The notes under the pieces: generated by a model | Databases searched by the model: none | Told to the model about the DNA's origin: nothing | Seen by the model: the letters and a program-made list of their open reading frames with translations, nothing else | Translations under genes and position numbers: made by a program | Origin: Bacillota bacterium | GTDB lineage: Bacteria > Bacillota_I > Bacilli_A > Acholeplasmatales > Acholeplasmataceae | Reading direction: 5' to 3' | Length of the DNA stretch: 57,776 nt | Assembly (NCBI GenBank): GCA_027620815.1 | Contig: JAQCDH010000001.1 | Coordinates: 1-57,776, forward strand | Shown: positions 1,873-22,483 of the stretch, piece after piece | Layout: each line of letters begins with the position of its first letter | Numbering within the stretch: the stretch's first letter is position 1

Positions 1873-2238
1873 ATGAAAAAAAGATACCGACTAAAAACAA
1901 AGAAAGAAATTGATTTTGTTTTTGCAAATAAAAAAAGTGTTAAAAACCAATTTTTTGGTATCCACTTCATTAAAAACTTGGATCAACCACACTTTAGGTT
2001 TGCACTATCTATTGGAAGAAAGTACGGCAATGCTGTTGCTAGAAACCTTAGAAAAAGACAAACTCGAATGATTGTTTCTTCGATACAACAAATTTCAAAC
2101 CATGTCCAATTTGTTGTTGTTATTTACCCAAAATCAAATCAGTTAAGTTTTGAAGAAGTCAAAAAAAATGTGTTGCAACTTATCGATCAAGCAACACTCA
2201 CGGAGAAAAATAATGAAAAAAATAGTATTGTTATTTAG
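1873..2238 (+). CDS. rnpA: Ribonuclease P protein component
   Basis: 121-aa basic protein directly after rpmH. It carries an RNR-type motif (AVARNLRKRQTR), and the rpmH-rnpA-yidC-jag order is conserved. Confidence 0.85.
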   Translation: MKKRYRLKTKKEIDFVFANKKSVKNQFFGIHFIKNLDQPHFRFALSIGRKYGNAVARNLRKRQTRMIVSSIQQISNHVQFVVVIYPKSNQLSFEEVKKNVLQLIDQATLTEKNNEKNSIVI

Positions 2239-4224: not shown

Positions 4225-4291
4225 CCCAGCTACTTTTTTTTATATCCAATATGTTATAATCAAATCAAGTAAAAAAAGGAAAAAACACGCA

Positions 4292-6351: not shown

Positions 6352-7717
6352 GTATTTATTTGAAAATCACCAGCAATTAGATCAACAAGAAGTTACCATC
6401 TATGGATGGGTAAGAAACAACCGAAGCCAAAAAAACTTCGGGTTTATCAATTTTCACGATGGAACGACATTCCCAACACTACAAGTTGTTTACGAAGAAA
6501 CACTACACAACTTCAAAGAAACTCAAAAAATACGTGTAGGTAGTTCCGTTGAAATTCATGGAAAGCTCGTGTTGACGCCTGATATGAAACAGCCTTTTGA
6601 AATTAAAGCAACACAAATCGCGCTTCTTGGGGATTCCCCGGAAGATTATCCAATTCAACCCAAAAGACATACAAGAGAGTTTTTAAGAGAAGTTGCGCAT
6701 CTTCGCATGCGTACCAATCTTTTTCAAGCGGTCTTTCGAGTGAGAAGCGAAGCCGCAATGGCCGTTCATCAATTTTTTAATAAGCGAGGATTTGTTTATA
6801 CCCATACACCACTCATTACAGGAAATGACGGTGAAGGTGCTGGATCGATGTTTCAAGTGACCACGCTAGACTTAAAACAAACGGGAAAAGAAAAAGAAAT
6901 TGATTATTCCAAAGATTTTTTTGGAAAACCAACCTATCTTGCAGTGACTGGCCAATTAGAAGCTGAAGCATACGCGATGGCGTTTAAAAACGTGTATACA
7001 TTCGGACCTACTTTTCGAGCCGAAAAATCAAACACCCAAAGACATGCATCTGAGTTTTGGATGATTGAACCAGAAATGGCTTTTTGTGATCTTGAAGGAG
7101 ACATGAATGTTGCCGAAGATATGGTTAAATACGTCATTGAATATATATTAAAAACTTGTCACTTTGAAATTGATTTCTTTAATGAGTTCGTTGATAAAAA
7201 CCTTAAAGAAAGACTAACACTTGTATTAAATAGTAGTTTTGAACGAATTACTCACGAAGAAGCAATCAATCAACTACTAGCCTCTAATCATCCTTTTGAA
7301 AATAAACCAACACACGGTCAAGACTTAAACACAGAGCACGAAAAATATTTAACTGACGTCCTATATAAAACACCTGTATTTATTACGCATTGGCCTAAAG
7401 ATATTAAAGCGTTTTATATGAGAATCAATGATGACCAAAAGACGGTTGCAGCAATGGACTTACTCGTTCCAGGAAGTGGAGAACTTATCGGTGGATCTCA
7501 AAGAGAAGAACGATTAGACCTCCTTATAAAAAGAATGAAAGAAATGCATGTTCCTATAGAAGAATTTAATTGGTATCTTGATTTAAGACGTTATGGCGGT
7601 ACCGTTCATAGTGGATTTGGGATGGGGTTTGAAAGACTCATTATGTATTTAACAGGTGTAGAAAATATTAGAGATGTGATTCCATTTCCAAGAACACCAA
7701 ACAATTGTGAATTTTGA
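6335..7717 (+). CDS. asnS: Asparagine--tRNA ligase
   Basis: Class IIb aaRS with an N-terminal OB fold (EVTIYGWVRNNR), motif 2 FRAEKSNTQRHASEFWMIEPE, and motif 3 GFGMGFERLIMYLTGVENIRDVIPFPR. The start METTVKY at 6335 has GAGGA 5 nt upstream; the track's alternative start is 6323. Confidence 0.93.
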   Translation: METTVKYLFENHQQLDQQEVTIYGWVRNNRSQKNFGFINFHDGTTFPTLQVVYEETLHNFKETQKIRVGSSVEIHGKLVLTPDMKQPFEIKATQIALLGDSPEDYPIQPKRHTREFLREVAHLRMRTNLFQAVFRVRSEAAMAVHQFFNKRGFVYTHTPLITGNDGEGAGSMFQVTTLDLKQTGKEKEIDYSKDFFGKPTYLAVTGQLEAEAYAMAFKNVYTFGPTFRAEKSNTQRHASEFWMIEPEMAFCDLEGDMNVAEDMVKYVIEYILKTCHFEIDFFNEFVDKNLKERLTLVLNSSFERITHEEAINQLLASNHPFENKPTHGQDLNTEHEKYLTDVLYKTPVFITHWPKDIKAFYMRINDDQKTVAAMDLLVPGSGELIGGSQREERLDLLIKRMKEMHVPIEEFNWYLDLRRYGGTVHSGFGMGFERLIMYLTGVENIRDVIPFPRTPNNCEF

Positions 7718-7749
7718 CATAAAATTTACGCAAAAAAACATTGCATTAC

Positions 7750-7777
7750 TTGAAAAAAACTTGTTTTGATATATAAT
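7750..7777 (+). promoter_or_regulatory. Sigma-70-type promoter for the leader and ABC operon
   Basis: TTGAAA (7750-7755), a 16-nt spacer, then TATAAT (7772-7777), with TG upstream at 7767-7768. Confidence 0.45.
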
Positions 7778-7885
7778 AATAATGCGAGGAAATTAAGATT
7801 GAAAAAAGACCACTATTTATTCAAAAATTTGAACACAAATATTACTTGGAGATTTTTTAACAATACAACAAAACACTAATTTTTT

Positions 7886-7924
7886 AAAGCGCTTAATAGA
7901 AACGATTAAGCGCTTTTTATTTTA
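7886..7924 (+). terminator. Intrinsic terminator or attenuator hairpin 20 nt upstream of the ABC ATPase start
   Basis: AAAGCGCTTAAT (7886-7897) pairs perfectly with ATTAAGCGCTTT (7905-7916) around a 7-nt loop. TTTTTATTTT follows. Confidence 0.6.
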
Positions 7925-7943
7925 AGAAAAACGGAGAATAGTA

Positions 7944-9491
7944 ATGCAAAATTCACACAAGAGTTTATCTATCAAACTAGAAAATTTACACAAGGATTTT
8001 GTCGATAAAAAAACAGGAAAAATCACACGCGCTGTGTATGATTTTGATGTTGAAATTCCGTCAGGAAAACTTGTGGGATTATTAGGGCCTTCAGGATGTG
8101 GAAAATCAACAACACTTTACATGATTGCGGGACTTTTGGCACCAACAAAAGGTAAAATTTTCTTTGGTGAAACAGAAGTCACTGAATTGGACGCCGAAAA
8201 GAGAGGGATTGGCTTGGTTTTTCAAAACTATGCACTTTATCCACACATGACGGTTAGAAAAAACATTTTATTTCCCTTAGAAAATATGAATTTAAAAAAA
8301 GTGTCTATAGAAAAAGCTTATAGACAAGCGTTTTTTATTGAAACACCATCAGAAGCAAAGAGGTATTTTGATTACGTAGATGCTTTTGAAAGCCTACAAA
8401 ACAAATTTAAGAGATTAGACAATGATGAGGCAAATGAAGTGAATAATGCCGTTCAAAGTTTAAAAGTTGAAAGCAAACAAAACAAAGAATTGAAACAAGC
8501 AAATAAAGAAAAAATAACAACACTTAAAGTTGAACTCAAAAACAAGCGTGATGCGCTATCTAAACAATATGAAAAAGAATTAAGCGAACTCGCTGTTGAA
8601 GATGTTAAGGCGTTATTTTCAACAATGAAACAAACGTATCAAGCAAAAGAAAAAATCTATAAAGAAACTTTAAAAAATAATTCTAATGCAGCTGTACCAG
8701 AGAGTGTTTCACTCGTTTTAGAAGCAAAAAGAACAAATTATAAAGCACTAATGGAAGACAGCATGATAGAAATGGCAAAACTCGTTGGTATTGAAGATCA
8801 ACTAGACAAAAAGCCAGCCCAACTTTCAGGCGGACAACAACAACGTGTAGCGATTGCACGCGCACTTGTTAAAAAACCACAAGTGTTGTTATTAGATGAA
8901 CCACTATCAAACTTAGATGCAAGACTTAGACTTCAAACAAGAGAAGAAATTAAACGCATTCAAAGAGAAACAGGTATTACAACAATTTTTGTCACACATG
9001 ACCAAGAAGAAGCGATGTCGATTTCTGATGAAATTGTCTTAATGAATTTTGGTGAAGAACAACAAAAAGGCCAACCTCAAGAAGTTTATGACCAACCAGC
9101 TAACTTGTTTTCAGCACAATTTTTGGGAACACCTCCAATTGGGATATACCACGCGGAACTCAAAAAAGGACAAGTTTTTATTAACCAAAAACTTGTGTTT
9201 GAATCAGAGAAACTCTCTAAAGAAAAAGACAGACAAGTTGTTGTTGGTGTGCGTCCAGAAGGATATACTCTTGATAAAGAAGGACCATTAACAATTGAAG
9301 CTCAGTTTGTTGAAACGATTGGCCGCGATTTTGCCCTAGTGTCTATTCATTCAGCATCTACCGCACCATCATTTAGAATTATTTTAAATGACGAGGTTAA
9401 TCTAAACGAACTAAAAGGAAACGTATCCTTTAAATTAAAAGAAAATAAAACCTATATTTTTGAAGAATCAAACGGTAGGAGACTTGCGTAA
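7944..9491 (+). CDS. ABC importer ATP-binding protein (MalK/UgpC/MsmK type) with a large internal insertion
   Basis: Walker [11 protein letters not shown]-loop [11 protein letters not shown], signature LSGGQQQR, Walker [13 protein letters not shown]-loop IFVTHDQ, and a C-terminal MalK-like regulatory domain. About 150 extra Lys/Glu-rich residues lie between the Q-loop region and the signature motif. Confidence 0.9.
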
Positions 9492-10417
9492 TGTTAGAAA
9501 ATAAAATTGATCGAAAAGCATGGTTTTATCTTGCTTTTCCGCTCCTTTTACTAACAGTATTTACGTTTTATCCCTTAGTAAAAACAATTTTAATCTCTAT
9601 TTTTTCTCAATATAATCCGATGACAGATACATTTGGATCGTATTTAGATGTCGCTGCTTACGGCGCAATTTTTAATGATCCGTATTTTATTAGAGCCATT
9701 GGAAACACAATGATCTTAGTTTTTGTTTCCGTACCGGTCTCTACAGGGCTTGCCTTATTAATTGCAGTTGCTTTAAATTCGATTAAACCGCTTCAAAAAA
9801 TATTCCAAACGGTGTTCTTCTTACCTTATGTAACAAACGGGTTAGCAATTGGGATGGTTTTTAGTGTCATGTTTTCACACCCATTAACAGACGGTTTAAT
9901 GGCTGAAGGTCTAATTAATACCTTGTTTAGACTTTCTAGAGACTGGGTTGGTGTGACCGCAGACCGTTCAGATTGGATGTTTGTTGTTCTGGTGTATTCT
10001 ATTTGGGATGGACTACCATTTAAAATTTTAGTCTTTATTGGTGGGCTCCAAAACATTTCAAAACAATATTATGATGCAGCAAAAATTGATGCAACTCCAA
10101 AAAGAAGAATTTTAAGACACATCACCGTTCCGCTACTATCACCACTTATTAGTTATATTTTGATTACCTCTTTTATAGGTGCATTTAAATCTTATGAAAG
10201 TGTGCTTGCTGTTGCAGGATCAACAGGAAGGCTTCTTGATAGAAATCGATGGACAGCTGTTGCTTATGTCTATGATAAGATTGGTAACGTTGGACTAGAC
10301 AGTAATTTTGTTTCTTACTATTCTAGAGGTGCAGCGTCTGCGGTAATTTTATTTATCATTATTTTGATATTCACGTTTATTAATTTGAATATTTCTAAAA
10401 AACGGGTTCATTACTAA
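9491..10417 (+). CDS. ABC importer permease (MalF/UgpA type)
   Basis: Multi-TM protein with the EAA-type loop YYDAAKIDATPKRRILRHITVPLLSP. TAATG overlap with the ATPase gene. Confidence 0.9.
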   Translation: MLENKIDRKAWFYLAFPLLLLTVFTFYPLVKTILISIFSQYNPMTDTFGSYLDVAAYGAIFNDPYFIRAIGNTMILVFVSVPVSTGLALLIAVALNSIKPLQKIFQTVFFLPYVTNGLAIGMVFSVMFSHPLTDGLMAEGLINTLFRLSRDWVGVTADRSDWMFVVLVYSIWDGLPFKILVFIGGLQNISKQYYDAAKIDATPKRRILRHITVPLLSPLISYILITSFIGAFKSYESVLAVAGSTGRLLDRNRWTAVAYVYDKIGNVGLDSNFVSYYSRGAASAVILFIIILIFTFINLNISKKRVHY

Positions 10418-10427
10418 GGAGAATGCG

Positions 10428-11366
10428 ATGATACAATACATGAATCCAAGCGGTCATTACCGCGTTAACCGAAAACTAAAAGAACAACGTGCACTTTTTG
10501 TTGCAAATAAATCAATGACATATTTCTTCTTATTTGTTATGGCGTTTATTGTGATTGTGCCATTTTACTGGATGCTTAATGTGTCCTTTCAATCTAGTAA
10601 CGAAGTACTTAACTCACTTAACACAAGTTTATTTCCTAAAGAATTTAGCCCACAGAATTATGTCTCAACATTTTTATACTCATCAGCACAACAAGGTGGG
10701 ATTACCTTTACGAGATATTTAAGTAATACACTGATTGTTGCGATATTTTCAACTGTAGGTGGAACCTTCTTCTCAATACTTGTGGCATTTGCACTTGCAA
10801 GACTGAACTTCAAAGGAAAAGAACTTATCTTTACAATCTTACTTGCAACCATGATGATTCCGGGTGAAATGTTAATTATCTCAAACTATATTACAGTTTC
10901 AAGATTAGGTTGGGTCAATGATGATGGTATCGGATCGTTCTTGGCGATGATCATTCCATTCTTTATTTCAATTTTCCATATTTACTTACTTAGACAAACA
11001 TTTAAACAAATTCCTAATGAATTGTATTATGCAGCCAAAGTCGATGGATGCAAAGACTTTAAATACTTAAGAACTGTGATGGTTCCTATGGCAAAAAGTT
11101 CAATCATCACCATCGTCATCTTAAAATTAATGGGTGCATGGAATGCCTATATTTGGCCAGATATTGTTGCAAACGAGAAATACAAACTCGTCACAACCTG
11201 GCTTAGATCTTCATTTACTGATCAAGACGCAACAGGTGTTGGTAGAGTCTTGATCAACTATCAAATGGCAGCGACTGTGATTGTGACAGTGCCATTACTA
11301 CTTATGTTTATCTTTTTTAGAAAATACATCATGTCTGGAATTTCTAGAAGTGGTGTTAAAGGGTAA
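10428..11366 (+). CDS. ABC importer permease (MalG/UgpE type)
   Basis: Multi-TM protein with the EAA-type loop LYYAAKVDGCKDFKYLRTVMVPMAKS. AAGGAGA RBS. Confidence 0.9.
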   Translation: MIQYMNPSGHYRVNRKLKEQRALFVANKSMTYFFLFVMAFIVIVPFYWMLNVSFQSSNEVLNSLNTSLFPKEFSPQNYVSTFLYSSAQQGGITFTRYLSNTLIVAIFSTVGGTFFSILVAFALARLNFKGKELIFTILLATMMIPGEMLIISNYITVSRLGWVNDDGIGSFLAMIIPFFISIFHIYLLRQTFKQIPNELYYAAKVDGCKDFKYLRTVMVPMAKSSIITIVILKLMGAWNAYIWPDIVANEKYKLVTTWLRSSFTDQDATGVGRVLINYQMAATVIVTVPLLLMFIFFRKYIMSGISRSGVKG

Positions 11367-11394
11367 TAAACAAAACAAAAAAGGAGAAAAGGGT

Positions 11395-12834
11395 ATGAAA
11401 AAAGTATTATTATTATTTTTAGCACTTACTGCTGCAGTTTCACTTGCTGCATGTGGTGGTGAACGTACAGGTGAAGAAGCCGCTCGTCTTGTTGAGTGGT
11501 ATGAATTATCTGCAGATGCTGATCTTGATACTACAAAAGAAATCACGATCACGTTTTGGCATCGCATGGGTGCACAATCTCAAGCACTCGTACAAAAATG
11601 GATAGAAGAATTTAAAGTTGTTTATCCAAACATTACCGTGATTGAAGAAAAAGCAGCTGGAGATTATACTGCTTTATCTGATAAGATTGCGCTTGCAATT
11701 CCTGCAGGAAATCAACCAGATATTGCTGAAAGTTATCCAGACCATATTGCACGATATGCTGCTGCAAAAGCACCACTTGCTCTGAATAACTTCATTAATA
11801 ATCCAAATATTGGTTTAACAGATGAAGAAATTGCAGACTTTTTGCCAGGATTGTGGGCAGAAGGTCAAAGTTATGATGATGAAGGAACAATTCTTTCATT
11901 GCCATTTACTAAGTCTTCAGAAGCGTTTTTCTATAACGAAACATATTTTAACGAACACGGATATGACGTTCCAACAACTTGGGATGAAGTATTTGAAATT
12001 GCTGCAGATATTAAATTAAGAGAACCAGATTCATTTCCTTTTGGATATGACTCAGAAGATAACTTATTCATTACAGGGTCTAAACAATTTAATGCACCTT
12101 ATACAGGATATAATGCTGAAACTGGACGCGGTGAGGTTCAATTCAACAACGACTTATCTAAAGATATGGTACGTTATTTTAAAGATAAGGTAGATAAGGG
12201 ATTAATGATTACACGTGCACTTAATGGCGATGCATATAACTCTGACTCAATGAAAGTTGCAAACCCTAAAACATATATGTACGTTGGATCTACAGGTGGA
12301 ACACGCTACGCTTATGTTGGTATGCCTCAAGCGGTTTTTGACGCGGGGTACCGTGTTGGTGTTGCACCACTTCCAGGATTTACTGCAGAATCTCGTTTCC
12401 AAATTCAACAAGGACCAAACATCAATTTATTCAAATCTAATGATGAACAACGCATGATTGCTGCATGGTTATTTGCGAAATTTATGTTAGAACCAGAGAG
12501 AACTGCTGAATTTAGTATTCCTTCAGGATATGCACCAATTCGTTATTCAGCTTACGAAACAACGCGTTGGACAAACTATGTTGCAGGTATTAAAGAAACC
12601 CCAACAACAATGGATGAAGCGATTGCAAAACTTGTTAAAGAAGCGATTGAAATTTTCTTAGAAAACGAAGATATTTTCTTTACATCAGCAGTATTTAATC
12701 AAAGTTCAAAAACACGATCTGAAGTTGGTGCACTACTTGTAAAAATACTTGCTTATGAAGCAGCAAGTGACGCTGATTTAGATGCTTATATTGATCAGCA
12801 ATATCAAGAATCATTTGATTTTATAACGAATTAA
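11395..12834 (+). CDS. ABC importer substrate-binding lipoprotein (family-1 extracellular solute-binding protein)
   Basis: The internal ATG at 11395, after AAGGAGAAAAGGG, gives the lipobox signal MKKVLLLFLALTAAVSLAACGG. It then reads ITITFWHRMG...EEFKVVYPNITV, typical of SBP_bac_1 proteins. Same operon as the permeases. Confidence 0.85.
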   Translation: MKKVLLLFLALTAAVSLAACGGERTGEEAARLVEWYELSADADLDTTKEITITFWHRMGAQSQALVQKWIEEFKVVYPNITVIEEKAAGDYTALSDKIALAIPAGNQPDIAESYPDHIARYAAAKAPLALNNFINNPNIGLTDEEIADFLPGLWAEGQSYDDEGTILSLPFTKSSEAFFYNETYFNEHGYDVPTTWDEVFEIAADIKLREPDSFPFGYDSEDNLFITGSKQFNAPYTGYNAETGRGEVQFNNDLSKDMVRYFKDKVDKGLMITRALNGDAYNSDSMKVANPKTYMYVGSTGGTRYAYVGMPQAVFDAGYRVGVAPLPGFTAESRFQIQQGPNINLFKSNDEQRMIAAWLFAKFMLEPERTAEFSIPSGYAPIRYSAYETTRWTNYVAGIKETPTTMDEAIAKLVKEAIEIFLENEDIFFTSAVFNQSSKTRSEVGALLVKILAYEAASDADLDAYIDQQYQESFDFITN

Positions 12835-12860
12835 TAAAAAAAAGAAAAAGGGAGAAGTGA

Positions 12861-15800
12861 ATGAAAAAATTATTTTTATTACTCGCATCATTCGCACTTG
12901 TCTTTGGTTTAGTTGCATGTGAAGACCCAGTAACGGTCGATCCAGCTCAAGAAACCCTACAAGATGCATATGATACATTAAACGGATTAATCTCTGACCC
13001 ATCAAATATTACCGGTAACTTTACGGTCCCAACATTACTTGTTGGTGGTGTTGATGCAGTATGGTCAACCAATAATCCAGGGGTTGTCACAGTAGGACAA
13101 CCAGCAAGTAACTTAGCAGTTGTAACTGTGAACCGTCCTGCATTTGGTGAACCAGATGCTAAAGTCACGTTAACAGCAGTTTTAACGATTCCATCTGAGT
13201 TAGATGCAACTCAAGAGCTTACACTTACTTGGAATTTAGAACTTACTGTTAAAGCAAGTGAAGTTGAAGAAGTCACAATTGAAAATATTGAAGACGTTCT
13301 CGCACTTGACGATGTTGCATATGATGGTACATACCAAGTAACATTAGACGGATTAACCATTGTAGGTAAAGGTTCAGATTCTGCGTTTGCATATGACGGA
13401 ACAGGAATCATTCAACTTTACGGTGGAGACATGAGTGGACTTGAAGTAGGAAAAGTCTATGATGTTTCTGGTACGACTGAATGGTACTTTGGTATTTGGG
13501 AACTTGTTGCTTGGACAGCGGAATTAGATGCTACAGCAACACCACAAATGCCTACAGCTGAAGTCATTACTGATATTGCAGCATATGTCAATAATTTACT
13601 TGATACAGATCAAGACCAATTTGCTTATGGTGATGCAGCAAGCGGCGCTTTTGAAACAGTTTATGCAACAGTTACAGGACGTGTTTATGTCATTCCTGGT
13701 GACACATCAAACTACAACACCTATATTATGCCAACCAATTATGACACAACACAAACATGGGTTCCAGGTACTACAGACGAACCAACAGTTGGTTTAATGA
13801 TTTACTATAATACATTTAATATGGCTGACATACAAGCATATAACGGAAAAGTTATTACAGTAGACATTTTAATTTATACATTTAGATCTAATAATAAAGC
13901 ATTTGCCTTCTACTATGTAGGTGGTGAAGATGGAATTACAGCAAGCCTTACAGATGCAGAAGCAATTGAAGTTGATGGTTCAGCATTATCGATTCCATTT
14001 AACATTCTTGAAGATACTACACTAGATTTAGCAACGACAGGTGCAAATGGCACGACAATTGCTTGGACATCAGATAATGAAGCTGTCATTAATCCAACGA
14101 CTGGTGCAGTCACTGTACCAACAGATGGTCAAGTTACAGTTCAATTAACTGCAACAGTATCACTTGGAACTGCAACTGCAGTTGTTAAGGAATTTACTGT
14201 TAAAGTCGGAGTATCACCAGTTGTTTCTATTTCTGAAGCGTTAGAAATTGCAGCAGGTGAACTTGCAGTAGTTCAAGGGTATGTTACATTGAATGTTGAT
14301 GGCAATAACTTCTTACTACAAGATGAAACAGGTGCACTTGATTTATATATGCCAGGTGATAGTGAACAAAAAACTGCAATTTTAGCAGCATTAGCAAGTG
14401 GAGAACTTGTTGAAGTTGTTGGTGAACGTGGTGCTTTTAGAGGATTAGAACAATTATCAGGTATCACAAGCGTTGCTGTTGTTCCTGAACCTGAAGTTGC
14501 ATTCCCGATTGTTGTTGATGTAACAGCATTATCACAATTAGATGGACTCGTTGCTCAACTCGTTAGATTTAGAAATCTTGAAGTCGTAAGTATCGCTTAT
14601 GACCAATATAACAACTTAGATATTACTGCAACCTTAGGAACAGAAACAGTTGTGATTCGTTGGGACTCAAGAGCTGCTACACCTGCTGGACTTCCAACAG
14701 AACTTGAAGCGGGCGACATTGTTAACGTTGTTGCTGGTGTGTATTTCAGTAACTCAGCAAGATTAAGAATTGACTCAGCAGATGATGTTTCATTACCTCC
14801 AATGACAATTGCAGCAGCATTATTAGAAGCTGTAGATACTGTTGTAACTGTTGAAGGATACATCACCATGAATGTTGATGGCAATAACTTCTTTATTCAA
14901 GATGGCACGGGTGCACTTGATATCTTTGCTGGTGGTGGTGCAAGCCCTACTAAAGATGAATTATTACGTGCGTATTACGGACGTTATGCAGTTCAAGTTA
15001 CAGCAAAACGTGGAACATTTAGAGGGTTAGAACAAGTATCAACAATTACAGAATTAATGCTTTTAGATAAAATTGGTGCTGCATTCCCTACACCAACAGT
15101 TGTGACAAGTGTTGGTGATTTATCAGACTACATTGCACAACAAGTTCGTTTAGAAGGTTTAGTATTTGTAAGCCTAGCGACAGATCAATACGATAACGTT
15201 GATTTCACATTTACACTAGGTAGTGAATCTGTTGTCATTCGTTGGGATTCAAGAACAGGAGATCCAGCAGGATTCCCATTAACACTAGTAGCTGGTGATG
15301 TTGTTGATGCTGTTGTCGGTATTTACTGGAGTGATGGTGCACGTTTAAGAATTGATGCTGAAGGTGATTTTACATTACCTCCAATGACCATTGCTACCGC
15401 ACTTACTGAAGCAGTAGACACAATCGTAACAATTCGTGGATATGTCACACTCAATGTCGATGGTAATAACTTCTTATTCCAAGACAACACTGGTGCACTA
15501 GATGTGTTCTTAGGAAGTGGCGCAAGTGCTGAAAAAGATGCGTTCCTAGCTGCTTACTTAGGTGGGTATGCAATTGAAATTCAAGCGACTCGTGGCACAT
15601 TTAGAGGATTAGAACAAGTTTCTAATGTTCAATTTGTAAACATCATTCCAACACCAGGATTTAACTTCCCAACAGCAGTTGATGTCACAGCAATGGATGT
15701 TACTGCATTAGAAGCGTATACCGCTCAACTTGTTGAATTTAAAGGATTAGAGGTGATCAGCTTAGCGTACGACCAATACGGGAATTTAGATATTGAAGTT

Positions 15801-16490
15801 TCAAATGGAACTGCAACATTCTTTATTCGTTGGGACTCTAGAACAGGCGATCCTGTTGGATTACCAACTGAGTTAGTTGCTGGTGATGTAATCAATGTTG
15901 TTGCTGGCGCATACTGGAGCAATGGATTAAGATTACGTATTGCAAGTGCTGATGCTGTTGAAAAAGTTGTTGTAGCGACCCCAACTCCGGACCTATTCAT
16001 TTCTGAGTATGTTGAAGGTGATGGCGGAAACAATAAAGCAATTGAATTATATAATCCAACAGCTGCTGCATTAGATCTAACAAACTATAGAGTAGTCTTA
16101 TATTCAAACGGAAGTACAACCGCTTCTCAAACATCAGTACTCTCAGGTTCTCTTGCAGCTGGAGATGTATTTGTAATCTATAACAGTCAATCAGTTTCTG
16201 AAATTACTTCAGTTGGAGATTTATCAGGAAACGTAACATTTTTCAACGGTGACGATGCATTTGTTTTAGAAAAAACAACTGACGGTGGAACTACATGGGT
16301 TGTCATAGATATGTTTGGTGTTGTTGGTGAAGATCCAGGATCATCTTGGGTTGTTGGCACTGGAACAACAGCAGATGTAACTCTTGTAAGAAAACCAGGT
16401 GTGACTGGTGGTACTGGAACATGGAATCCAGAAGAATGGATTGTATATCCAGCAAATGATTTTTCATATTTAGGTTCACATACTGCGTAA
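12861..16490 (+). CDS. Giant surface lipoprotein (1209 aa): Ig-like modules, three tandem ~194-aa repeats (OB-fold-like) and a C-terminal lamin-tail domain (LTD)
   Basis: Lipobox MKKLFLLLASFALVFGLVAC and GGGAGA RBS. The C-terminal segment LFISEYVEGDGGNNKAIELYNPTAAALDLTNYRVVLYSNGSTT...GDDAFVL matches the LTD module of ExeM/NucH-type extracellular nucleases. No catalytic nuclease motif was recognised. Confidence 0.8.
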   Translation: MKKLFLLLASFALVFGLVACEDPVTVDPAQETLQDAYDTLNGLISDPSNITGNFTVPTLLVGGVDAVWSTNNPGVVTVGQPASNLAVVTVNRPAFGEPDAKVTLTAVLTIPSELDATQELTLTWNLELTVKASEVEEVTIENIEDVLALDDVAYDGTYQVTLDGLTIVGKGSDSAFAYDGTGIIQLYGGDMSGLEVGKVYDVSGTTEWYFGIWELVAWTAELDATATPQMPTAEVITDIAAYVNNLLDTDQDQFAYGDAASGAFETVYATVTGRVYVIPGDTSNYNTYIMPTNYDTTQTWVPGTTDEPTVGLMIYYNTFNMADIQAYNGKVITVDILIYTFRSNNKAFAFYYVGGEDGITASLTDAEAIEVDGSALSIPFNILEDTTLDLATTGANGTTIAWTSDNEAVINPTTGAVTVPTDGQVTVQLTATVSLGTATAVVKEFTVKVGVSPVVSISEALEIAAGELAVVQGYVTLNVDGNNFLLQDETGALDLYMPGDSEQKTAILAALASGELVEVVGERGAFRGLEQLSGITSVAVVPEPEVAFPIVVDVTALSQLDGLVAQLVRFRNLEVVSIAYDQYNNLDITATLGTETVVIRWDSRAATPAGLPTELEAGDIVNVVAGVYFSNSARLRIDSADDVSLPPMTIAAALLEAVDTVVTVEGYITMNVDGNNFFIQDGTGALDIFAGGGASPTKDELLRAYYGRYAVQVTAKRGTFRGLEQVSTITELMLLDKIGAAFPTPTVVTSVGDLSDYIAQQVRLEGLVFVSLATDQYDNVDFTFTLGSESVVIRWDSRTGDPAGFPLTLVAGDVVDAVVGIYWSDGARLRIDAEGDFTLPPMTIATALTEAVDTIVTIRGYVTLNVDGNNFLFQDNTGALDVFLGSGASAEKDAFLAAYLGGYAIEIQATRGTFRGLEQVSNVQFVNIIPTPGFNFPTAVDVTAMDVTALEAYTAQLVEFKGLEVISLAYDQYGNLDIEVSNGTATFFIRWDSRTGDPVGLPTELVAGDVINVVAGAYWSNGLRLRIASADAVEKVVVATPTPDLFISEYVEGDGGNNKAIELYNPTAAALDLTNYRVVLYSNGSTTASQTSVLSGSLAAGDVFVIYNSQSVSEITSVGDLSGNVTFFNGDDAFVLEKTTDGGTTWVVIDMFGVVGEDPGSSWVVGTGTTADVTLVRKPGVTGGTGTWNPEEWIVYPANDFSYLGSHTA
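14214..15960 (+). repeat. Three in-frame tandem coding repeats (579, 582 and about 585 nt) inside the giant lipoprotein gene
   Basis: Units start at 14214, 14793 and 15375; the last two both begin TTACCTCCAATGAC. Shared blocks are GYVTLNVDGNNF(L/F)xQDxTGALD, RGxFRGLEQxS, DQYxNxD, (V/F)IRWDSR and ARLRI. The copies have diverged at the DNA level. Confidence 0.88.
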
Positions 16491-16511
16491 TAATTGATTT
16501 AACATTGTAAG

Positions 16512-16541
16512 AAAAAGGATAGAGCAATCTATCCTTTTTTT
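16512..16541 (+). terminator. Rho-independent terminator after the giant lipoprotein gene
   Basis: GGATAG (16517-16522) pairs with CTATCC (16529-16534), extended by flanking A/T pairs. A T7 run follows. Confidence 0.7.
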
Positions 16542-16553
16542 ATTTGTAAAAAA

Positions 16554-16582
16554 GTATTAAAAAACGTATAATAGACATACAC
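16554..16582 (+). promoter_or_regulatory. Near-consensus promoter for the membrane-protein and nuclease pair
   Basis: TTGTAA (16554-16559), a 17-nt spacer, then TATAAT (16577-16582). It lies 19 nt upstream of the ATG at 16601. Confidence 0.5.
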
Positions 16583-16600
16583 AAAAACCTAGGAAAACAC

Positions 16601-17458
16601 ATGGGAAAAATCTTTGGAATCACATCATATATTATATTGATTGCTTTTATCACCTTTATTGTTGCTGGTTATGCAAGAGCCAATCAAACAGTAACATTTT
16701 TAGAAGAACAAGAAGCAAGTATATATGATGATTCAAAAGATTTGATAACAGCAACTTTAATCGCAAACACACAAGGACAATTTGATATTTATATCAAAAA
16801 TGATCCCATCATTGATGTTGAAATTACTCAACCAAACTATGCCTATCAACTTATGATATTTCCCGTGCTATTATACGAAAACAACAGTAATTATCATTAT
16901 GAAATGATCATATTCATTTGCGATTATGAGAATACTGATTCTTTTGCTTTTTTTAATGATGATGCACTTACACTAAAAATTGATATTGCGTTTGAATCTA
17001 ATCCAGAAGGGTTTAATCAAAGTGTCTTTCAAGAACAATTCGTCCAACTATATGACGATTCAATGCACATGTATGCAATCGATCAAAGACATTTTATAAA
17101 GGACACCAAAACAACACGTATTGAACGTATTGAAGTATTTTATCCAACAGAAGGATTTGATGTTTCAACATCAAAACTCATCAATACCGATGTTTATGAG
17201 GATAAGAGTTTAAGTTTTCCAGATTTCTACCAAGCAGATTTAAACACAATAGAAGAATCAAATATTCAACTTGAAACCATTAATGATAAAGATACGTGGT
17301 ATCTTAATACCGAACTTAATACAATGTTTCAATCATATAACTACTTGAGTTACTTATATATAGGAATTGAAATACTTATATTTATTCCCGTCACCTACTT
17401 TACGTTTTTTCATAAAATTGTGAAGAGAATGAAAACAAACAAGGAGATCACGAAATGA
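16601..17458 (+). CDS. Bitopic membrane protein of unknown function with TM helices at the N and C termini
   Basis: 285 aa. The N-terminal TM is IFGITSYIILIAFITFIVAGYA and the C-terminal TM is LSYLYIGIEILIFIPVTYFTFF. The central region of about 220 aa is acidic and Asn/Tyr-rich. ATGA overlap with the downstream nuclease gene. No family was recognised. Confidence 0.65.
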   Translation: MGKIFGITSYIILIAFITFIVAGYARANQTVTFLEEQEASIYDDSKDLITATLIANTQGQFDIYIKNDPIIDVEITQPNYAYQLMIFPVLLYENNSNYHYEMIIFICDYENTDSFAFFNDDALTLKIDIAFESNPEGFNQSVFQEQFVQLYDDSMHMYAIDQRHFIKDTKTTRIERIEVFYPTEGFDVSTSKLINTDVYEDKSLSFPDFYQADLNTIEESNIQLETINDKDTWYLNTELNTMFQSYNYLSYLYIGIEILIFIPVTYFTFFHKIVKRMKTNKEITK

Positions 17459-18663
17459 GAAAAACCATCACAATAATCACGCTTCTTTTAAGTGTTTTCT
17501 TACTTCAATCGTGTCAAGGAGAAACACCAAACATTGTTATTTCTAAAGTGTTCGATGCAACATCGATGTCTAATAATGTTATTGAATTATATAATCCATC
17601 CAATGAACCAGTGGATTTAAACAAGGTTGAATTAAGAATTTATAATAATGGGTCGACAACAGACGGTGGGGATCACGCCATACAACTTGAAGGAAGTCTC
17701 GAACCAAATTCCTATTATGTAGTTTCAGGGAACAATCCAACGAATATAAATATTCAAAACAAGACAGATTATCAATATAACAATAACTTACCTTATAATG
17801 GTAATGACGTCATAGAACTTTTTTATAATAATCAAAAAGTAGATCAATTTGGGCTATTAGGATTTGATATTAATTTTGCAGTCGATCTTACAATGATAAG
17901 ACTTGGTGAAAAAGAAGACTATATCGCATCAACAGAATATAATCAATTTAATTTTATTGCATATATTCCTGATTTGTTTGAGAACTTAAAAAACGATAAT
18001 CATGACATTAAAACACTTGAACAACTCTATCAAGGGCCGCAATTAGAACAACGCTATTTAGATTTGCCATACGTTGACCCAAACAACAATGAATTAGGTT
18101 ATGGAGGTGCAGCAGAGGTTCAATTGAACGGAGTTGCTGATGGAGATACCGCATTTTTTACCTCAATGAATGGATATCCAGGAGGGTCGTTAAGATACTT
18201 TTACTTAAACACACCTGAAGTGAATGGAAGCAATGTATCAGCAGAACCATGGGGATATGTTGCTAGTAAATATAATAAAGAATATCTTTTAAGCGAATCT
18301 AATTCAAAGACCATACACATACAATCAATTCCTGGAAATAGTCTACAAGAGGGATATGGTAGAAATCTTGGACTTGTTTGGATCAACGGGGCCCTTTCAC
18401 AATTTTGGATTGTCGCAGAAGGATTATCAGAAGATGTTGGTTCACAATACCAAGCCTATGATTATTTGTTAACCTATAAAAATGTACCTTATTTAACATT
18501 TTTAAGATTTGCTCAACATAGAGCAGAACAGAATAGTTGGGCAACTAAAGGATTTCCAAATGATCCAGAAGGTGAAAAATCTCCTGACTGGAACTATGAC
18601 ACAAGAAGAAATACAACTGAAAATCCAGTTTGGACACCACACTTAAAACTTCCTTGGGAATAA
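17455..18663 (+). CDS. Surface lipoprotein fusing an N-terminal LTD to a C-terminal staphylococcal (micrococcal) nuclease domain
   Basis: Lipobox MRKTITIITLLLSVFLLQSC. The LTD reads NNVIELYNPSNEPVDLNKVELRIYNNGSTT...NGNDVIELF. SNase blocks are ADGDTAFF, LRYFYLNTPE, EPWGYVASKYNKEYL, GYGRNLGLVWING and IVAEGLS. Confidence 0.85.
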   Translation: MRKTITIITLLLSVFLLQSCQGETPNIVISKVFDATSMSNNVIELYNPSNEPVDLNKVELRIYNNGSTTDGGDHAIQLEGSLEPNSYYVVSGNNPTNINIQNKTDYQYNNNLPYNGNDVIELFYNNQKVDQFGLLGFDINFAVDLTMIRLGEKEDYIASTEYNQFNFIAYIPDLFENLKNDNHDIKTLEQLYQGPQLEQRYLDLPYVDPNNNELGYGGAAEVQLNGVADGDTAFFTSMNGYPGGSLRYFYLNTPEVNGSNVSAEPWGYVASKYNKEYLLSESNSKTIHIQSIPGNSLQEGYGRNLGLVWINGALSQFWIVAEGLSEDVGSQYQAYDYLLTYKNVPYLTFLRFAQHRAEQNSWATKGFPNDPEGEKSPDWNYDTRRNTTENPVWTPHLKLPWE

Positions 18664-18684
18664 AAGCGGGGCAACTCGCTTTTT
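18663..18684 (+). terminator. Rho-independent terminator after the nuclease gene
   Basis: AAAGCGGG pairs with CTCGCTTT (one G-U pair) around a GCAA tetraloop, followed by a T-run. Confidence 0.6.
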
Positions 18685-18729
18685 ATTATGAAATATGATA
18701 TTCTATTATAATCTTCAAAAGGAGCAAAC

Positions 18730-19686
18730 ATGAAAGATGTCATCTTAAGCAAAATCAAAGCATATCACACGATTATCATCCATAGACACCTAAGGCCCGA
18801 TTTAGATGCTATTGGGAGTCAAATGGGATTGAAATTTCTTTTAGAAAGACAATTTCCAGATAAAAAGATATGTGTTGTAGGGGATTTAAATACAATGAGT
18901 TATCTTGCAAACATGGACGAAGTAACTGATGAAATGTATAAAGATGCACTTGTTATTATTACAGACGTTGCTGTATCACATATGATTAGTGATGATCGTT
19001 ATCTATTAGGAAAAGAAATTATCATTATCGATCACCATGAAAACGATACTGACGTAGAAAATGTTTCAATCCATTATAAAGATACGAGTTTTAACTCAGC
19101 ATGTGAGATGATAATAGACATTGCTAAGACATACGATTTTCATTTATCAAAAGATGCAGCGACGTATCTTTATGGAGGGATGGTCACAGATTCTGGAAGG
19201 TTTTTATACTTAAAAAATCCAGAAAGAACCTTTTTACTCGCAAGCTATGTATCTCGTTTTGAACCTAATATCCAAGATTTATATAATTATTTGTATACCG
19301 AAACACTTTCAAGAAAAGTATTGAAAAATCAATTTTCATCATTTGAACTTACTAAAGAAAATGTTGCTTATAGAATTAACTCCAAAGCCTTAATTGAATC
19401 AACTGGTGAAGACTTTCAATCCATTAGTCGTGGTATGGTCAATCAAATGTCAGGCATTAAAGAAGTGCTGATATGGGGAAGCTTCTCTGAAGATCAGAAT
19501 GGTTCTTATGTCGCCGAACTTCGTTCAAGAGATATCCCGATTGTAGATGTTGCTAAAAAATATGGTGGCGGTGGGCATTTAAATGCTTGTGGTGCAACAT
19601 TAGAAAATATTGAAAAAGTGTATCAACTCATAGAAGACTTAAATGAAAAGGTGAAACAACATGACAAACATTCTACAAGAAATTAA
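18730..19686 (+). CDS. DHH/DHHA1 phosphoesterase, NrnA-like (nanoRNase, pAp phosphatase or Pde2-type), paralog 1
   Basis: HRHLRPDLDAIGS (DxD motif), IIIDHHEND (DHH), GGGGHLNACG (DHHA1 GGGH). 318 aa. Confidence 0.85.
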   Translation: MKDVILSKIKAYHTIIIHRHLRPDLDAIGSQMGLKFLLERQFPDKKICVVGDLNTMSYLANMDEVTDEMYKDALVIITDVAVSHMISDDRYLLGKEIIIIDHHENDTDVENVSIHYKDTSFNSACEMIIDIAKTYDFHLSKDAATYLYGGMVTDSGRFLYLKNPERTFLLASYVSRFEPNIQDLYNYLYTETLSRKVLKNQFSSFELTKENVAYRINSKALIESTGEDFQSISRGMVNQMSGIKEVLIWGSFSEDQNGSYVAELRSRDIPIVDVAKKYGGGGHLNACGATLENIEKVYQLIEDLNEKVKQHDKHSTRN

Positions 19687-20593
19687 ACGATTTGATACGA
19701 TTATTATTCATGGACATAAAAGACCAGATGGGGATTGCTACGGAGGACAATACGGACTCAAAGGCATTTTAAAAGCAGCCTTTCCTCAAAAGAACATTTA
19801 TGTTGTAGGAGAAGAAAGTGATTACGTCAAGTACGTAGGAACGCCAGATGTGATTACTGATGATGTATATAAAGATGCATTATCAATTGTTGTTGATACA
19901 GCGACCAAAGATCGCATAAGCGACATGAGATATACACTAGGAAAAAAAGTGATTAAAATTGACCATCATATTGATGTTGACGCTTATGGTGATATGAATT
20001 GGGTAGATACGAGTTACCCTGCAGTTTCTGAAATGATTACTGACTTTGCATTTCAGCACAAGTTAGAAATTCCATTAGAATCTGCAATCGCTTTATATAC
20101 AGGGTTAATTACAGATACGGGTAGATTTCGTTATCGTGGCGTTTCAAAAAGAACACATACACTTGCTGGATTATTAATCGAAGCAGGAGTTGATGTTGAA
20201 CTTATTGATTCAAAACTCAGCAAAGAAACACTAAAAATGTATGCCCTAAAAGGATATGTTTATTCTAATTTTACAACTGTTGAAGGTGGATTTATATACT
20301 TAAAGATGCCAAGAGCAGTTATTGAAGAATACGGTGTCACAGATGAAGAAGCTGCTTCTGTTGTCAATTTAATAGGAGGATTAGATGGGTATCCTGTTTG
20401 GGCACTTATGATTGAATATGAGAATGAAATCCGTATAAGACTAAGATCTTCTGGACCAATGATTAATACACTTGCTGAAAAGTATGAAGGTGGTGGCCAT
20501 GCAAAAGCATCAGGAGCAAGATTACCTTCTTGGGAACATGTTGATCAATTTAGTAAAGATGTCATTCAACACATAAAAGACTCAAAGGAGTAA
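19661..20593 (+). CDS. DHH/DHHA1 phosphoesterase, NrnA-like, paralog 2
   Basis: HGHKRPDGDCYGG, KIDHHIDVD and EGGGHAKASG motifs. AAGGTGA RBS. Overlaps paralog 1 by 26 nt. Confidence 0.85.
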   Translation: MTNILQEIKRFDTIIIHGHKRPDGDCYGGQYGLKGILKAAFPQKNIYVVGEESDYVKYVGTPDVITDDVYKDALSIVVDTATKDRISDMRYTLGKKVIKIDHHIDVDAYGDMNWVDTSYPAVSEMITDFAFQHKLEIPLESAIALYTGLITDTGRFRYRGVSKRTHTLAGLLIEAGVDVELIDSKLSKETLKMYALKGYVYSNFTTVEGGFIYLKMPRAVIEEYGVTDEEAASVVNLIGGLDGYPVWALMIEYENEIRIRLRSSGPMINTLAEKYEGGGHAKASGARLPSWEHVDQFSKDVIQHIKDSKE

Positions 20594-20596
20594 ATC

Positions 20597-21106
20597 ATGG
20601 AGTATATTTTAGATAGTAATATTACACTAGAACAACTGTTTTATATTATTTTATTACCACTATTTTTAACATCAATCATTGCTTATTTTATCGGATTTGA
20701 AAGACAGAAGATTGGAAAAGCAGCAGGTATTTCTTCTCATATGCTTGTCGCGTTCGCAAGTGCTGCAATTGCAATCATGCAACGCCTACTTTATGAATAT
20801 GAAATCAATCAACTTGGGATACAAGAAGTACAAACACAACGTATTATTGCACAAGTACTCACGGGTATAGGGTTTATTGGTGCAGGTGTCATTTTAAAAG
20901 AAAAAGGCTCAATTAGAGGAATTACCACAGCAACAACGATTTGGTCATCTGCCATCATAGGACTTATATTAGGGAGTGGGTTTCTTGTTTTAGGTGTCAT
21001 TGTTGGAGTGTTGATATTTTTATTTATTTTTCTAAGAGACTTAGCAAGAGGATTTAACCCATTTAGAAAAGATCATAAAAATGAGGAGCTTGAAGACCAT
21101 CTATGA
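20597..21106 (+). CDS. MgtC/SapB-family membrane protein (short form)
   Basis: IGFERQKIGKAAGISSHMLVAFASAA and GIGFIGAGVILKEKGSIRGITTATTIWSSA are typical MgtC-family blocks. At 169 aa it lacks a long soluble C-terminal domain. Confidence 0.8.
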   Translation: MEYILDSNITLEQLFYIILLPLFLTSIIAYFIGFERQKIGKAAGISSHMLVAFASAAIAIMQRLLYEYEINQLGIQEVQTQRIIAQVLTGIGFIGAGVILKEKGSIRGITTATTIWSSAIIGLILGSGFLVLGVIVGVLIFLFIFLRDLARGFNPFRKDHKNEELEDHL

Positions 21107-22446: not shown

Positions 22447-22457
22447 ACACCATTTCA

Positions 22458-22466
22458 TGATATAAT
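22458..22466 (+). promoter_or_regulatory. Extended -10 element TGATATAAT upstream of dnaX
   Basis: An exact TGnTATAAT match 18 nt upstream of the dnaX ATG, with the AGGAGA RBS in between. Confidence 0.4.
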
Positions 22467-22483
22467 AACGTTAGGAGATATAC

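Follow-up and report, generated by a model that had tools for sequence, protein, structure and literature searches.

What does an ATP-binding cassette (ABC) transporter carry when its genes lie beside those of a surface nuclease, and do these proteins constitute a single system for feeding on nucleic acids outside the cell? The question is raised by a locus at 7944–20593 of the first 57,776 nucleotides (nt) of contig JAQCDH010000001.1 (assembly GCA_027620815.1, Acholeplasmataceae); this whole stretch is referred to here as the window. Bacteria with reduced genomes, such as Acholeplasma, Mycoplasma, Izemoplasma and gut RF39-like lineages, depend on salvaged nucleic-acid building blocks, and extracellular DNA represents a large nutrient pool. 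The locus comprises nine genes, which encode an ABC ATPase, two permeases, a substrate-binding lipoprotein, a giant surface lipoprotein with OB and lamin-tail (LTD) domains, a membrane protein, a nuclease lipoprotein with LTD and staphylococcal nuclease (SNase) domains, and two DHH/DHHA1 phosphoesterases. All of them, like the other features of the locus described below, are located on the + strand. An earlier interpretation, made without database searches and referred to here as the sequence-only reading, had reported this same-strand run; the nine genes lie at the stated coordinates, and the protein families are borne out by the Pfam and NCBIfam scans on which the domain assignments in this work are based. 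We propose, with a probability of about 0.6, that the locus is the Acholeplasmataceae version of a conserved extracellular nucleic-acid scavenging locus of wall-less or reduced-genome Bacillota, operating by the mechanism outlined below. Joint action of the nuclease, the scaffold and the importer in nucleic-acid scavenging is likely.

The nuclease gene travels with the importer genes

A search of 185,579 species genomes with two peptide motifs of the binding-protein family alone yielded 78 loci, whose binding-protein identities range from 98% to 31%. Sufficient flanking sequence, defined as at least 6 kb upstream and at least 6.5 kb downstream of the binding-protein gene, was available for 41 of these loci. 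A hidden Markov model (HMM) of the SNase domain, built from the window and locus sequences and run on all open reading frames (ORFs) of the loci, identified an SNase ORF in each of the 41, and the 15 loci in which no SNase matched all break off within 4.6 kb downstream of the binding-protein gene. The nuclease gene is found in at least five arrangements: in L002, L040 and L052 it precedes the ATPase gene; in L044, L047 and L129 it immediately follows the binding-protein gene; in L060 and L070 it lies about 6 kb downstream; in L021 and L039 it is encoded on the other strand; and in L094, L111 and L117 it belongs to a divergent operon. The reverse search gave the same picture: every full-length LTD-SNase relative from metagenomes (at least 25% identity) with sufficient flank has ABC and binding-protein genes nearby, and generic matches restricted to the SNase domain have no ABC genes nearby. 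Since the position of the nuclease gene varies widely and the linkage nevertheless persists, these comparisons indicate that the association is not due to chance and reflects selection for linkage rather than inherited gene order. They support the view that the nuclease, the large OB/LTD surface protein, the UgpC/A/E-like importer and its binding protein form one conserved functional neighborhood. The locus type itself is not a discovery of this work; what is added is the strict co-travel of the nuclease with this binding protein and importer, from Acholeplasmataceae to distant gut and sediment lineages.

Several contigs carrying this mollicute-type locus (L019, L029, L030, L063, L074, L081) are labeled as Staphylococcus epidermidis, Staphylococcus sp., Hallerella, Parasutterella or Bacteroides uniformis. 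These labels are probably binning or labeling errors in public metagenome-assembled genomes (MAGs).

The binding pocket points to a phosphate-containing cargo

The transporter genes begin with an ATPase of the UgpC/MalK type (7944..9491; 515 aa; ABC_tran, Pfam E = 2.7e-36), followed by a UgpA/MalF-like permease (9491..10417) and a UgpE/MalG-like permease (10428..11366), both with a BPD_transp_1 domain. The substrate-binding lipoprotein (11395..12834; 479 aa) matches SBP_bac_8 (4e-36) and SBP_bac_1. The sequence-only reading had placed its start at GTG 11350; the ATG at 11395, which follows an AAAGGAG ribosome-binding site, is most likely the start. The protein is 64% identical to its counterpart in A. 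laidlawii, 67% to that of A. hippikon and up to 98% to those of uncultured Acholeplasmataceae, and the ATPase is 59% identical to the A. laidlawii counterpart. A Lys/Glu-rich insert of about 130 aa (residues ~126–257, window ~8319–8714) splits the ABC domain of the ATPase before the signature motif. ATPase lengths are 515–553 aa in Acholeplasmataceae and 348–395 aa, without the insert, in distant loci.

The best NCBIfam matches of the four transporter proteins are UgpC, UgpA, UgpE and UgpB, with all scores far under the curated cut-offs; the binding protein reaches 55.9 bits against 411 for the UgpB equivalog. A single-sequence search of the PDB gave one Thermus thermophilus protein, present in many entries (7C0F and others), as the best match of the binding protein (E = 2e-17), followed by the E. 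coli and marine UgpB proteins. Entry 7C0F is the binding protein for the dinucleotide uridylyl-3'-5'-phosphoguanosine (U3G; the protein is termed U3GBP here), described by Chandravanshi et al. 2021 (per Table S5, PMC12718374). A family profile built from 12 sequences scored E. coli UgpB at 110.9 bits, Thermus U3GBP at 109.5 and marine UgpB at 105; after a gap came the M. tuberculosis glycerophosphocholine (GPC) binder at 75.7, with all sugar binders at or below 71.5. A dinucleotide binder as the closest relative was therefore dropped as a conclusion, being true in the single-sequence search and only a tie with UgpB in the profile search. The profile scores place the family in the phosphate-ester branch of CUT1, together with UgpB and U3GBP.

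The residues of the pocket were compared with this branch. The phosphate is held by two Tyr and two Ser residues in UgpB, the GPC binder and U3GBP, and a clamp of two Trp residues on the glycerol is confined to binders of glycerol-3-phosphate (G3P) (PMC12718374). The phosphate-contacting Tyr, Ser, Ser and Tyr and a Gly are kept in the window family in both the MAFFT and HMMER alignments, and an Arg aligns in the MAFFT alignment only, the HMMER alignment ending before it. In both alignments the UgpB columns Trp169, Trp172 and Glu66 are occupied by Asp, Phe and Pro, respectively, and the Pro is followed by an invariant Asp-His. Thermus U3GBP likewise lacks the Trp clamp. None of the loci examined showed a glycerophosphodiesterase (UgpQ or GlpQ), whereas the E. 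coli ugp operon includes ugpQ.

Because the glycerol clamp and Glu66 are lost, the phosphate contacts are kept and no glycerophosphodiesterase accompanies the genes, the label "glycerol-3-phosphate / multiple sugar binding protein" is probably wrong for this protein; the caution of the sequence-only reading against a label based on homology was probably justified. The pocket residues argue for a cargo that bears a phosphate and against G3P, and the ligand is likely larger than or different from G3P. By extension, thousands of members of this family that are annotated with "multiple sugar" or "glycerol-3-phosphate" are probably mislabeled too. Judging from the neighboring genes, there is an even chance that the cargo is a nucleotide, a dinucleotide or a short oligonucleotide. 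In distant lineages (L044, L047, L052, L060), two tandem binding-protein paralogues are often present; the window has one.

A broader proposal can be made from these observations. Mollicute nucleoside importers so far characterized use another binding-protein family (P48), and intact nucleotide uptake by M. mycoides was reported in the 1980s, for which "no gene has been identified" (PMC6609329). We tentatively suggest, at somewhat less than even odds, that the binding protein and its ABC transporter are the long-sought mollicute nucleotide importer, in which a CUT1-family system would take up SNase products (3'-nucleotides, dinucleotides or short oligonucleotides) rather than nucleosides, under a UTP-sensing leader attenuator that switches on when nucleotides are low. 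If this is true, a gene would be assigned to the nucleotide uptake of M. mycoides, and the transporter would be the first physiological oligonucleotide/dinucleotide ABC importer.

The nuclease, the giant lipoprotein and a membrane partner at the cell surface

Lipoprotein signal peptides are present at the N termini of three proteins: the binding protein (lipobox LAAC), the giant protein (LVAC) and the nuclease (LQSC). The nuclease (17455..18663; 402 aa) contains an LTD at residues 24–133 (2.7e-12) and an SNase/thermonuclease domain at about 220–330. The Pfam score of the latter, 19.9 bits, is under the gathering cut-off of 21. The domain nevertheless aligns with S. aureus nuclease (E = 2e-5) with DGDT, Arg35, Thr41, Glu43 and Tyr85-Gly-Arg87 in register, and the family SNase HMM scores it at 1e-45. 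These alignments support the SNase assignment despite the sub-threshold score, in agreement with the identity given in the sequence-only reading. The 57.8-kb window holds one SNase gene. Across the loci, two nuclease types occur: the LTD-SNase of the window, and, in more distant lineages, a lipoprotein that combines SNase with DUF5689. In the latter type the SNase domain is N-terminal and the gene lies directly 3' of the binding-protein gene (e.g., L129 9869–11026 and L048 5934–7184).

The giant surface lipoprotein (12861..16490; 1209 aa) consists of an Ig-like domain, two small beta-barrels, an aBig_2 domain, three OB repeats of the BOF type and a C-terminal LTD (9.5e-17). Homologues were found in Acholeplasmatales, Izemoplasma and a few Bacilli only, and usually comprise 890–950 aa with aBig_2 and often an LTD. 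The three BOF-type OB repeats represent, by this comparison, a recent expansion in the close clade of the window. The AlphaFold model of residues 25–460 has a predicted local distance difference test score (pLDDT) of 94 and forms a chain of the Ig-like domain, the two small beta-barrels and aBig_2. Foldseek searches with this model returned weak matches only (Ig domains, cadherins and the OB-fold single-stranded DNA-binding protein LEF-3, E = 4e-4), because the model is a string of separate domains, and the PDB sequence search gave an aBig_2-type match only. A relative from an Anaeroplasmatales MAG (L053) contains a clear nucleic-acid-binding OB fold (PF01336, 6e-14). Nucleic-acid binding by the giant protein is plausible from its domain content. 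In a Paenibacillus relative (P0224), LTD and aBig_2 are joined to metallophosphatase and 5'-nucleotidase domains. In the giant protein as well as in the nuclease, the LTD region is matched by the NCBIfam model for ExeM.

The nuclease gene is preceded by that of a 285-aa membrane protein (16601..17458), whose stop overlaps the nuclease start in an ATGA at 17455–17458, an overlap that the sequence-only reading had noted. The same reading had called the protein bitopic, which the structural model does not support, as it predicts a membrane helix at each end with a beta-sandwich outer domain between them (pLDDT 81). No Pfam or NCBIfam family matches the protein, no PDB fold match was better than E = 0.045, and its homologues are found only in Acholeplasmataceae. 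It could be an anchor, a regulator or an inhibitor of the nuclease. Small proteins that start with a CxxC...CxxC zinc-ribbon motif recur beside the nuclease/ABC loci of distant lineages (L052 6177–6638, L047 15451–15882, L044 11562–11996, L060 17565–18122 and L068 16070–16675), where they may replace the membrane protein.

Further signals divide the locus into putative transcription units. A terminator hairpin with a T-tail (16510..16548; hairpin 16510–16541, -16.0 kcal/mol) closes the ABC/giant-protein unit, and the promoter scan gave a promoter-like site, TTGTAA-17-TATAAT (16544..16572), for the membrane-protein and nuclease pair. A second hairpin with a T-tail lies 3' of the nuclease gene (18662..18687; hairpin 18662–18683, -11.1 kcal/mol). 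The sequence-only reading had located terminators at 16512 and 18663 and a promoter before the membrane-protein gene, and all three stood up. For each of these hairpins, and for that of the leader described below, 0 of 200 shuffles folded as well. Since the terminator at 16510–16541 and the promoter-like site at 16544–16572 lie between them, the nuclease gene is predicted not to be co-transcribed with the transporter genes.

A leader with a candidate attenuator precedes the importer operon

The region 5' of the ATPase gene (7750–7923) contains a promoter, a leader ORF and a terminator, which were absent from the sequence-only reading. The promoter-like site (7750..7777) reads TTGAAA-16-TATAAT, with 11/12 matches, and would drive the leader and the ABC operon. 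The leader ORF (7799..7879; MKKDHYLFKNLNTNITWRFFNNTTKH) has 26 codons and a TTG start after a GAGGAAA ribosome-binding site. It is followed by a hairpin with a T-tail (7886..7923; 12 bp, -13.9 kcal/mol), a candidate translation-coupled attenuator. Runs of six T occur at 7853–7858, inside the leader ORF, and at 7880–7885, after it. The hairpin itself (7886–7916) is separated by 6 nt from the leader stop on its 5' side and by 27 nt from the ATPase ATG on its 3' side. As these 27 nt leave no space for another promoter, the operon must be transcribed through the terminator. The gene upstream of the leader differs in A. laidlawii, and the leader is therefore assigned to the ABC operon.

The relatives were searched for an ORF of 22–36 codons with a ribosome-binding site that ends between -14 and +10 nt of the 5' edge of a hairpin, and for a run of at least six T located 15–40 nt upstream of the hairpin. 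Of 20 Acholeplasmataceae loci, 18 had the leader-ORF layout (0.16 expected from shuffles) and 18 the T-run (0.79 expected), counts that overstate independence, because the loci are related. The leader peptide sequences are not conserved and the T-run falls in varying frames; the layout is the conserved part. A riboswitch was considered as an alternative and rejected: no Rfam model matched the window at gathering thresholds, and a permissive scan of 7690–7960 gave only chance-level matches.

In E. coli, a ribosome at a stop codon 5–6 bp before a terminator lowers termination from ~90% to <10%, and pyrBI sets the coupling of ribosome and polymerase through pause sites (PMC4824070). By analogy, the leader is probably a translation-coupled attenuator, and probably a UTP-sensitive one; whether it senses nucleotides is, in our estimate, evenly balanced.

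Two NrnA-like phosphoesterases follow the nuclease gene

The genes of the two DHH/DHHA1 proteins (DHH1, 18730..19686; DHH2, 19661..20593) overlap by 26 nt, confirming the overlap reported earlier. Both proteins contain DHH and DHHA1 domains with the motifs IDHH and GGGGH/GGGH, and both are closest to B. subtilis NrnA (1.5e-46 for DHH1 and 7e-71 for DHH2), DHH1 being the more divergent copy and DHH2 the closer relative. Their NCBIfam scores of 232.5 and 267.8 bits do not reach the NrnA equivalog cut-off of 350 bits. Both are predicted to be cytoplasmic, because they are without signal peptides.

The pair is also encountered in other layouts. It lies directly 3' of the SNase gene in the distant locus L129 and in L133, and after the LTD protein in L132. 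In MAGs labeled as Clostridia, a DHH-DHH-SurE unit, SurE being a nucleotidase, is encoded on the opposite strand, 8–9 kb downstream of the binding-protein gene (L046 18875–21380; also L049, L051, L067, L076, L078 and L080). The window further encodes a PAS-PAS-GGDEF protein (37894–39474), which hints at cyclic-di-GMP signaling. Such signaling would add pGpG as a possible substrate of the DHH enzymes.

Proposed mechanism and alternative explanations

The proposed mechanism starts at the membrane, where the lipid-anchored OB/LTD giant protein would hold DNA or RNA. The lipid-anchored LTD-SNase, made together with its two-helix membrane partner, would then cut the nucleic acid to 3'-phosphorylated mono-, di- and short oligonucleotides. 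The binding lipoprotein would capture a small phosphate-containing product and pass it to the UgpA/E/C-like transporter. Our best guess for this product is a mono- or dinucleotide; a nucleoside, G3P or a sugar is less favored. In the pocket, the phosphate contacts typical of the UgpB/U3GBP branch are retained and the glycerol clamp of UgpB is absent. In the cytoplasm, the two NrnA-type DHH enzymes would finish short oligonucleotides to mononucleotides; this step would be the weakest link, because the enzymes may be general housekeeping proteins. Expression of the transporter operon would need read-through of the terminator 6 nt past the 26-codon leader ORF, according to a pyrBI-like logic. At low UTP, RNA polymerase would pause in the U-runs, allowing the ribosome to catch up and, once at the stop codon, to mask the 5' arm of the hairpin, so that transcription continues. 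The uptake genes would thereby be switched on when nucleotides are scarce.

Several points weigh against this proposal. The DHH pair is near only 16 of the 41 loci and missing from the flanks of the other 25. A tandem DHH pair of M. bovis (Mbov_0328/Mbov_0327) consists of a cyclic-dinucleotide phosphodiesterase and a nanoRNase that serve internal nucleotide recycling (PMC7373297). The assignment of the cargo is based on family placement at ~20–25% identity and on the gene neighborhood, and the dinucleotide and G3P binders score too closely in the profile search to be told apart. Wasmund et al., who described related loci in Ca. Izemoplasmatales, read the transporter as a nucleoside/nucleobase importer (PMC8289736). 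The three-fold OB repeat of the giant protein is found only in the close clade of the window, most relatives having one OB unit, and OB proteins of the BOF type are not proven nucleic-acid binders. SNase leaves 3'-phosphate ends, which the binding protein or the NrnA-type enzymes may not accept. ExeM retains most of its activity without its LTD, which is thus largely dispensable. The attenuator mechanism is argued from analogy. Finally, the Ca2+ ligand Asp40 of staphylococcal nuclease is an Asn in the window nuclease (18178–18200 region), and the activity or metal preference may differ. The same column is Asn in L002 and Asp in A. laidlawii, L060 and L053.

The alternative explanations differ mainly in what the transporter would carry. 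According to the interpretation of Wasmund et al., the same scavenging locus would import nucleosides or nucleobases, after surface nucleotidases encoded elsewhere have stripped the phosphates. Secreted 5'-nucleotidases are indeed encoded elsewhere in the genomes they studied (PMC8289736), and the Paenibacillus relative with its phosphatase and nucleotidase domains is in line with this idea. We nevertheless regard it as unlikely, considering that no nucleotidase or phosphatase gene is present in the window locus or most related loci, that the binding-protein family groups with phosphate-ester binders and retains their contacts, that nucleoside importers of mollicutes use the P48 family, and that uptake of intact nucleotides has been reported for M. 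mycoides (PMC6609329). If the transporter instead imported G3P, glycerophosphodiesters or sugars, the nuclease would be adjacent only through a general cluster of surface lipoproteins or phosphate scavenging. The Ugp-type NCBIfam matches, the nominal top rank of E. coli UgpB in the profile search and the phosphate transporter that ends the Izemoplasma locus would fit such a role. The shortfall of the NCBIfam scores, the missing Trp169/Trp172 clamp and Glu66, and the absence of UgpQ and GlpQ from the loci examined speak against it, and SNase linkage in all 41 loci, through many rearrangements and at identities as low as 31%, would be difficult to account for unless the proteins shared a stream of substrate; we consider this explanation improbable. 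Even less probable is a mainly non-nutritional role of the nuclease and the OB/LTD protein, such as clearing biofilm or host-trap DNA or taking up DNA as genetic material, with an unrelated transporter. Mycoplasma SNase lipoproteins do degrade neutrophil extracellular traps and are cytotoxic, and ExeM affects biofilm formation. Yet free-living or environmental Acholeplasmataceae and Izemoplasmatales carry the locus, no competence genes were found by domain scans of the locus genes and flanks, and both the strict importer linkage and the leader, which seems to respond to nucleotide level, point to nutrition.

The standing of the DHH pair can be judged separately, since a housekeeping role is compatible with nucleic-acid scavenging by the other genes. 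The pair could lie outside the system as a housekeeping nanoRNase and a DhhP-type cyclic-dinucleotide phosphodiesterase, adjacent by inherited order; both activities are found in the M. bovis pair (PMC7373297). A terminator separates the nuclease gene from the pair, MgtC, MnmE and DnaX come directly after it, and it is nearby in 10 and missing in 6 of the 16 Acholeplasmataceae loci with at least 9.5 kb downstream. The conservation of the gene neighborhood, which the sequence-only reading had suggested checking, holds for the SNase and importer genes and only weakly for the DHH pair. On the other hand, the pair recurs by the locus in different layouts (Izemoplasma, L129, L133, L132 and the Clostridia-labeled MAGs). 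The M. bovis pair is needed in cell culture, and the defect of its mutants is rescued by nucleoside monophosphates or nucleosides (PMC7373297), which ties these enzymes to nucleotide supply. By this analogy, the window pair may be tied to nucleotide supply and still be housekeeping rather than a dedicated finishing step. We see the housekeeping explanation as having slightly less than an even chance, and functional dedication of the pair to scavenging could equally be right or wrong.

Genomic setting of the locus

The locus lies within housekeeping genes of the origin-proximal set. Its upstream flank contains the genes for YidC, Jag, RmuC and AsnS (2150–7717), and its downstream flank (20597–24160) those for MgtC, MnmE and DnaX. 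Gene order in A. laidlawii is identical from the ATPase gene through that of DnaX. This species is thus a culturable relative with the whole locus, in which the cargo and the predicted leader are testable. When the rest of the window was scanned for more salvage genes, housekeeping genes only were found, and no phosphate transporter was detected among the window ORFs scanned. In a distant Acholeplasmatales MAG (L002 1–2000 and 18685–21292), the locus lies between rnpA-yidC and dnaA-dnaN. The GC skew climbs steadily over most of the window.

Comparison with known systems

The sequence-only reading held that no described system combines all these parts. This claim does not stand: homologous "DNA-degradation loci" were described in Ca. 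Izemoplasmatales by Wasmund et al. 2021 (Nat Microbiol; PMC8289736), and the mycoplasma literature already contains a model of binding, cutting and import. The scavenging interpretation is thus a reasonable hypothesis on sequence grounds and one that has already been published. What is new here is the placement of the binding protein with its pocket signature, and the layout of the leader attenuator.

The Izemoplasmatales loci encode an ABC transporter together with extracellular and 3'-5' nucleases, and also a large protein with YhcR-like OB, nuclease and lamin-tail domains. This protein is hypothesized to keep DNA near the cell, the same role as proposed here for the giant protein. The best matches of the binding protein in other genomes have nucleases close by, and Ca. 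Izemoplasma acidinucleici took up 13C from labeled DNA in stable-isotope probing (PMC8289736). On Izemoplasma scaffold_255, the order is a UgpB-annotated binding protein, an SNase, the large protein, an SNase, two overlapping NrnA proteins and a phosphate transporter (Supplementary Table 5, PMC8289736). The window shares the binding protein with its ABC transporter, the SNase, the large OB/lamin-tail surface protein and the two overlapping NrnA genes, in the same order, and homology was measured by blastp for the binding protein, the SNase and the DHH pair. The binding protein is 31.5% identical to peg.643 over 419 aa (E = 4e-55), the window SNase is ~30% identical to peg.644 and peg.647, and DHH1 and DHH2 are reciprocal best matches of peg.648 (42%) and peg.649 (40%) in the same order. 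The giant protein matches the partial peg.646 with 35% identity over a short stretch of 139 aa. The Izemoplasma large protein has an endonuclease I domain, and none was detected in the window giant protein, which has the three OB repeats instead. In Izemoplasma, a further SNase lipoprotein is encoded immediately 3' of the binding-protein gene, and a Na/phosphate transporter closes the locus. The window has neither; it adds the two-helix membrane protein coupled to the LTD-SNase.

In mycoplasmas, SNase lipoproteins (Mhp379, MPN133, MG186, MAG_5040, MHO_0730) adjoin a UgpC/A/E-like ABC operon. Its binding protein is predicted to be P80, and the genes are co-transcribed (PMC3585158). In the published model for MslA/P80, the SNase and the ABC operon, a lipoprotein binds the polynucleotide, the nuclease cuts it and the ABC transporter imports the products. 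Judged by the published descriptions, the window resembles this operon, and also MBOVPG45_0307-0311, in combining a surface SNase lipoprotein with a UgpC/A/E-like importer and a binding-protein-like lipoprotein. An NCBIfam scan of the window proteins gave a weak match to the P68 lipoprotein family (E = 4e-7). An LTD is missing from the mycoplasma nucleases, and the descriptions of these operons include no giant OB/LTD protein, whereas the window has both. The mycoplasma nuclease gene is upstream and co-transcribed, in contrast to the window nuclease, which is downstream in its own predicted transcription unit. In M. genitalium, the nuclease, ABC and DHH genes are presumably adjacent (MG186-MG190), an adjacency that is not counted as evidence here.

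The remaining parts have separate precedents. E. coli UgpBAEC shares the transporter architecture, the CUT1 family and the phosphate-contacting residues, with UgpB as the nominal top profile match, but the window family lacks the Trp169/Trp172 clamp, Glu66 and a ugpQ partner, and misses the NCBIfam cut-offs widely. To Thermus U3GBP (7C0F), the window binding protein is only ~20–25% identical. Among the extracellular nucleases Shewanella ExeM and Bacillus YhcR, ExeM joins an LTD and OB folds of the YhcR type to a nuclease at the cell envelope, part types that the window also has; the catalytic domain of ExeM is of the EEP type and all domains are fused in one protein, whereas the OB/LTD scaffold and the SNase of the window are separate lipoproteins. 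The leader resembles the E. coli pyrBI and pyrE attenuators, with a short leader ORF and its ribosome-binding site, a U-rich stretch before an intrinsic terminator, and a ribosome that would be positioned to mask the hairpin. The window leader differs in that its stop lies at the 5' edge of the hairpin, not past it, and in that the genes it precedes serve uptake, not synthesis. The DHH pair, finally, is like M. bovis Mbov_0328/Mbov_0327 and M. pneumoniae MPN549/MPN140, which are likewise two DHH/DHHA1 paralogues of a mollicute tied to nucleotide supply and are adjacent in M. bovis.

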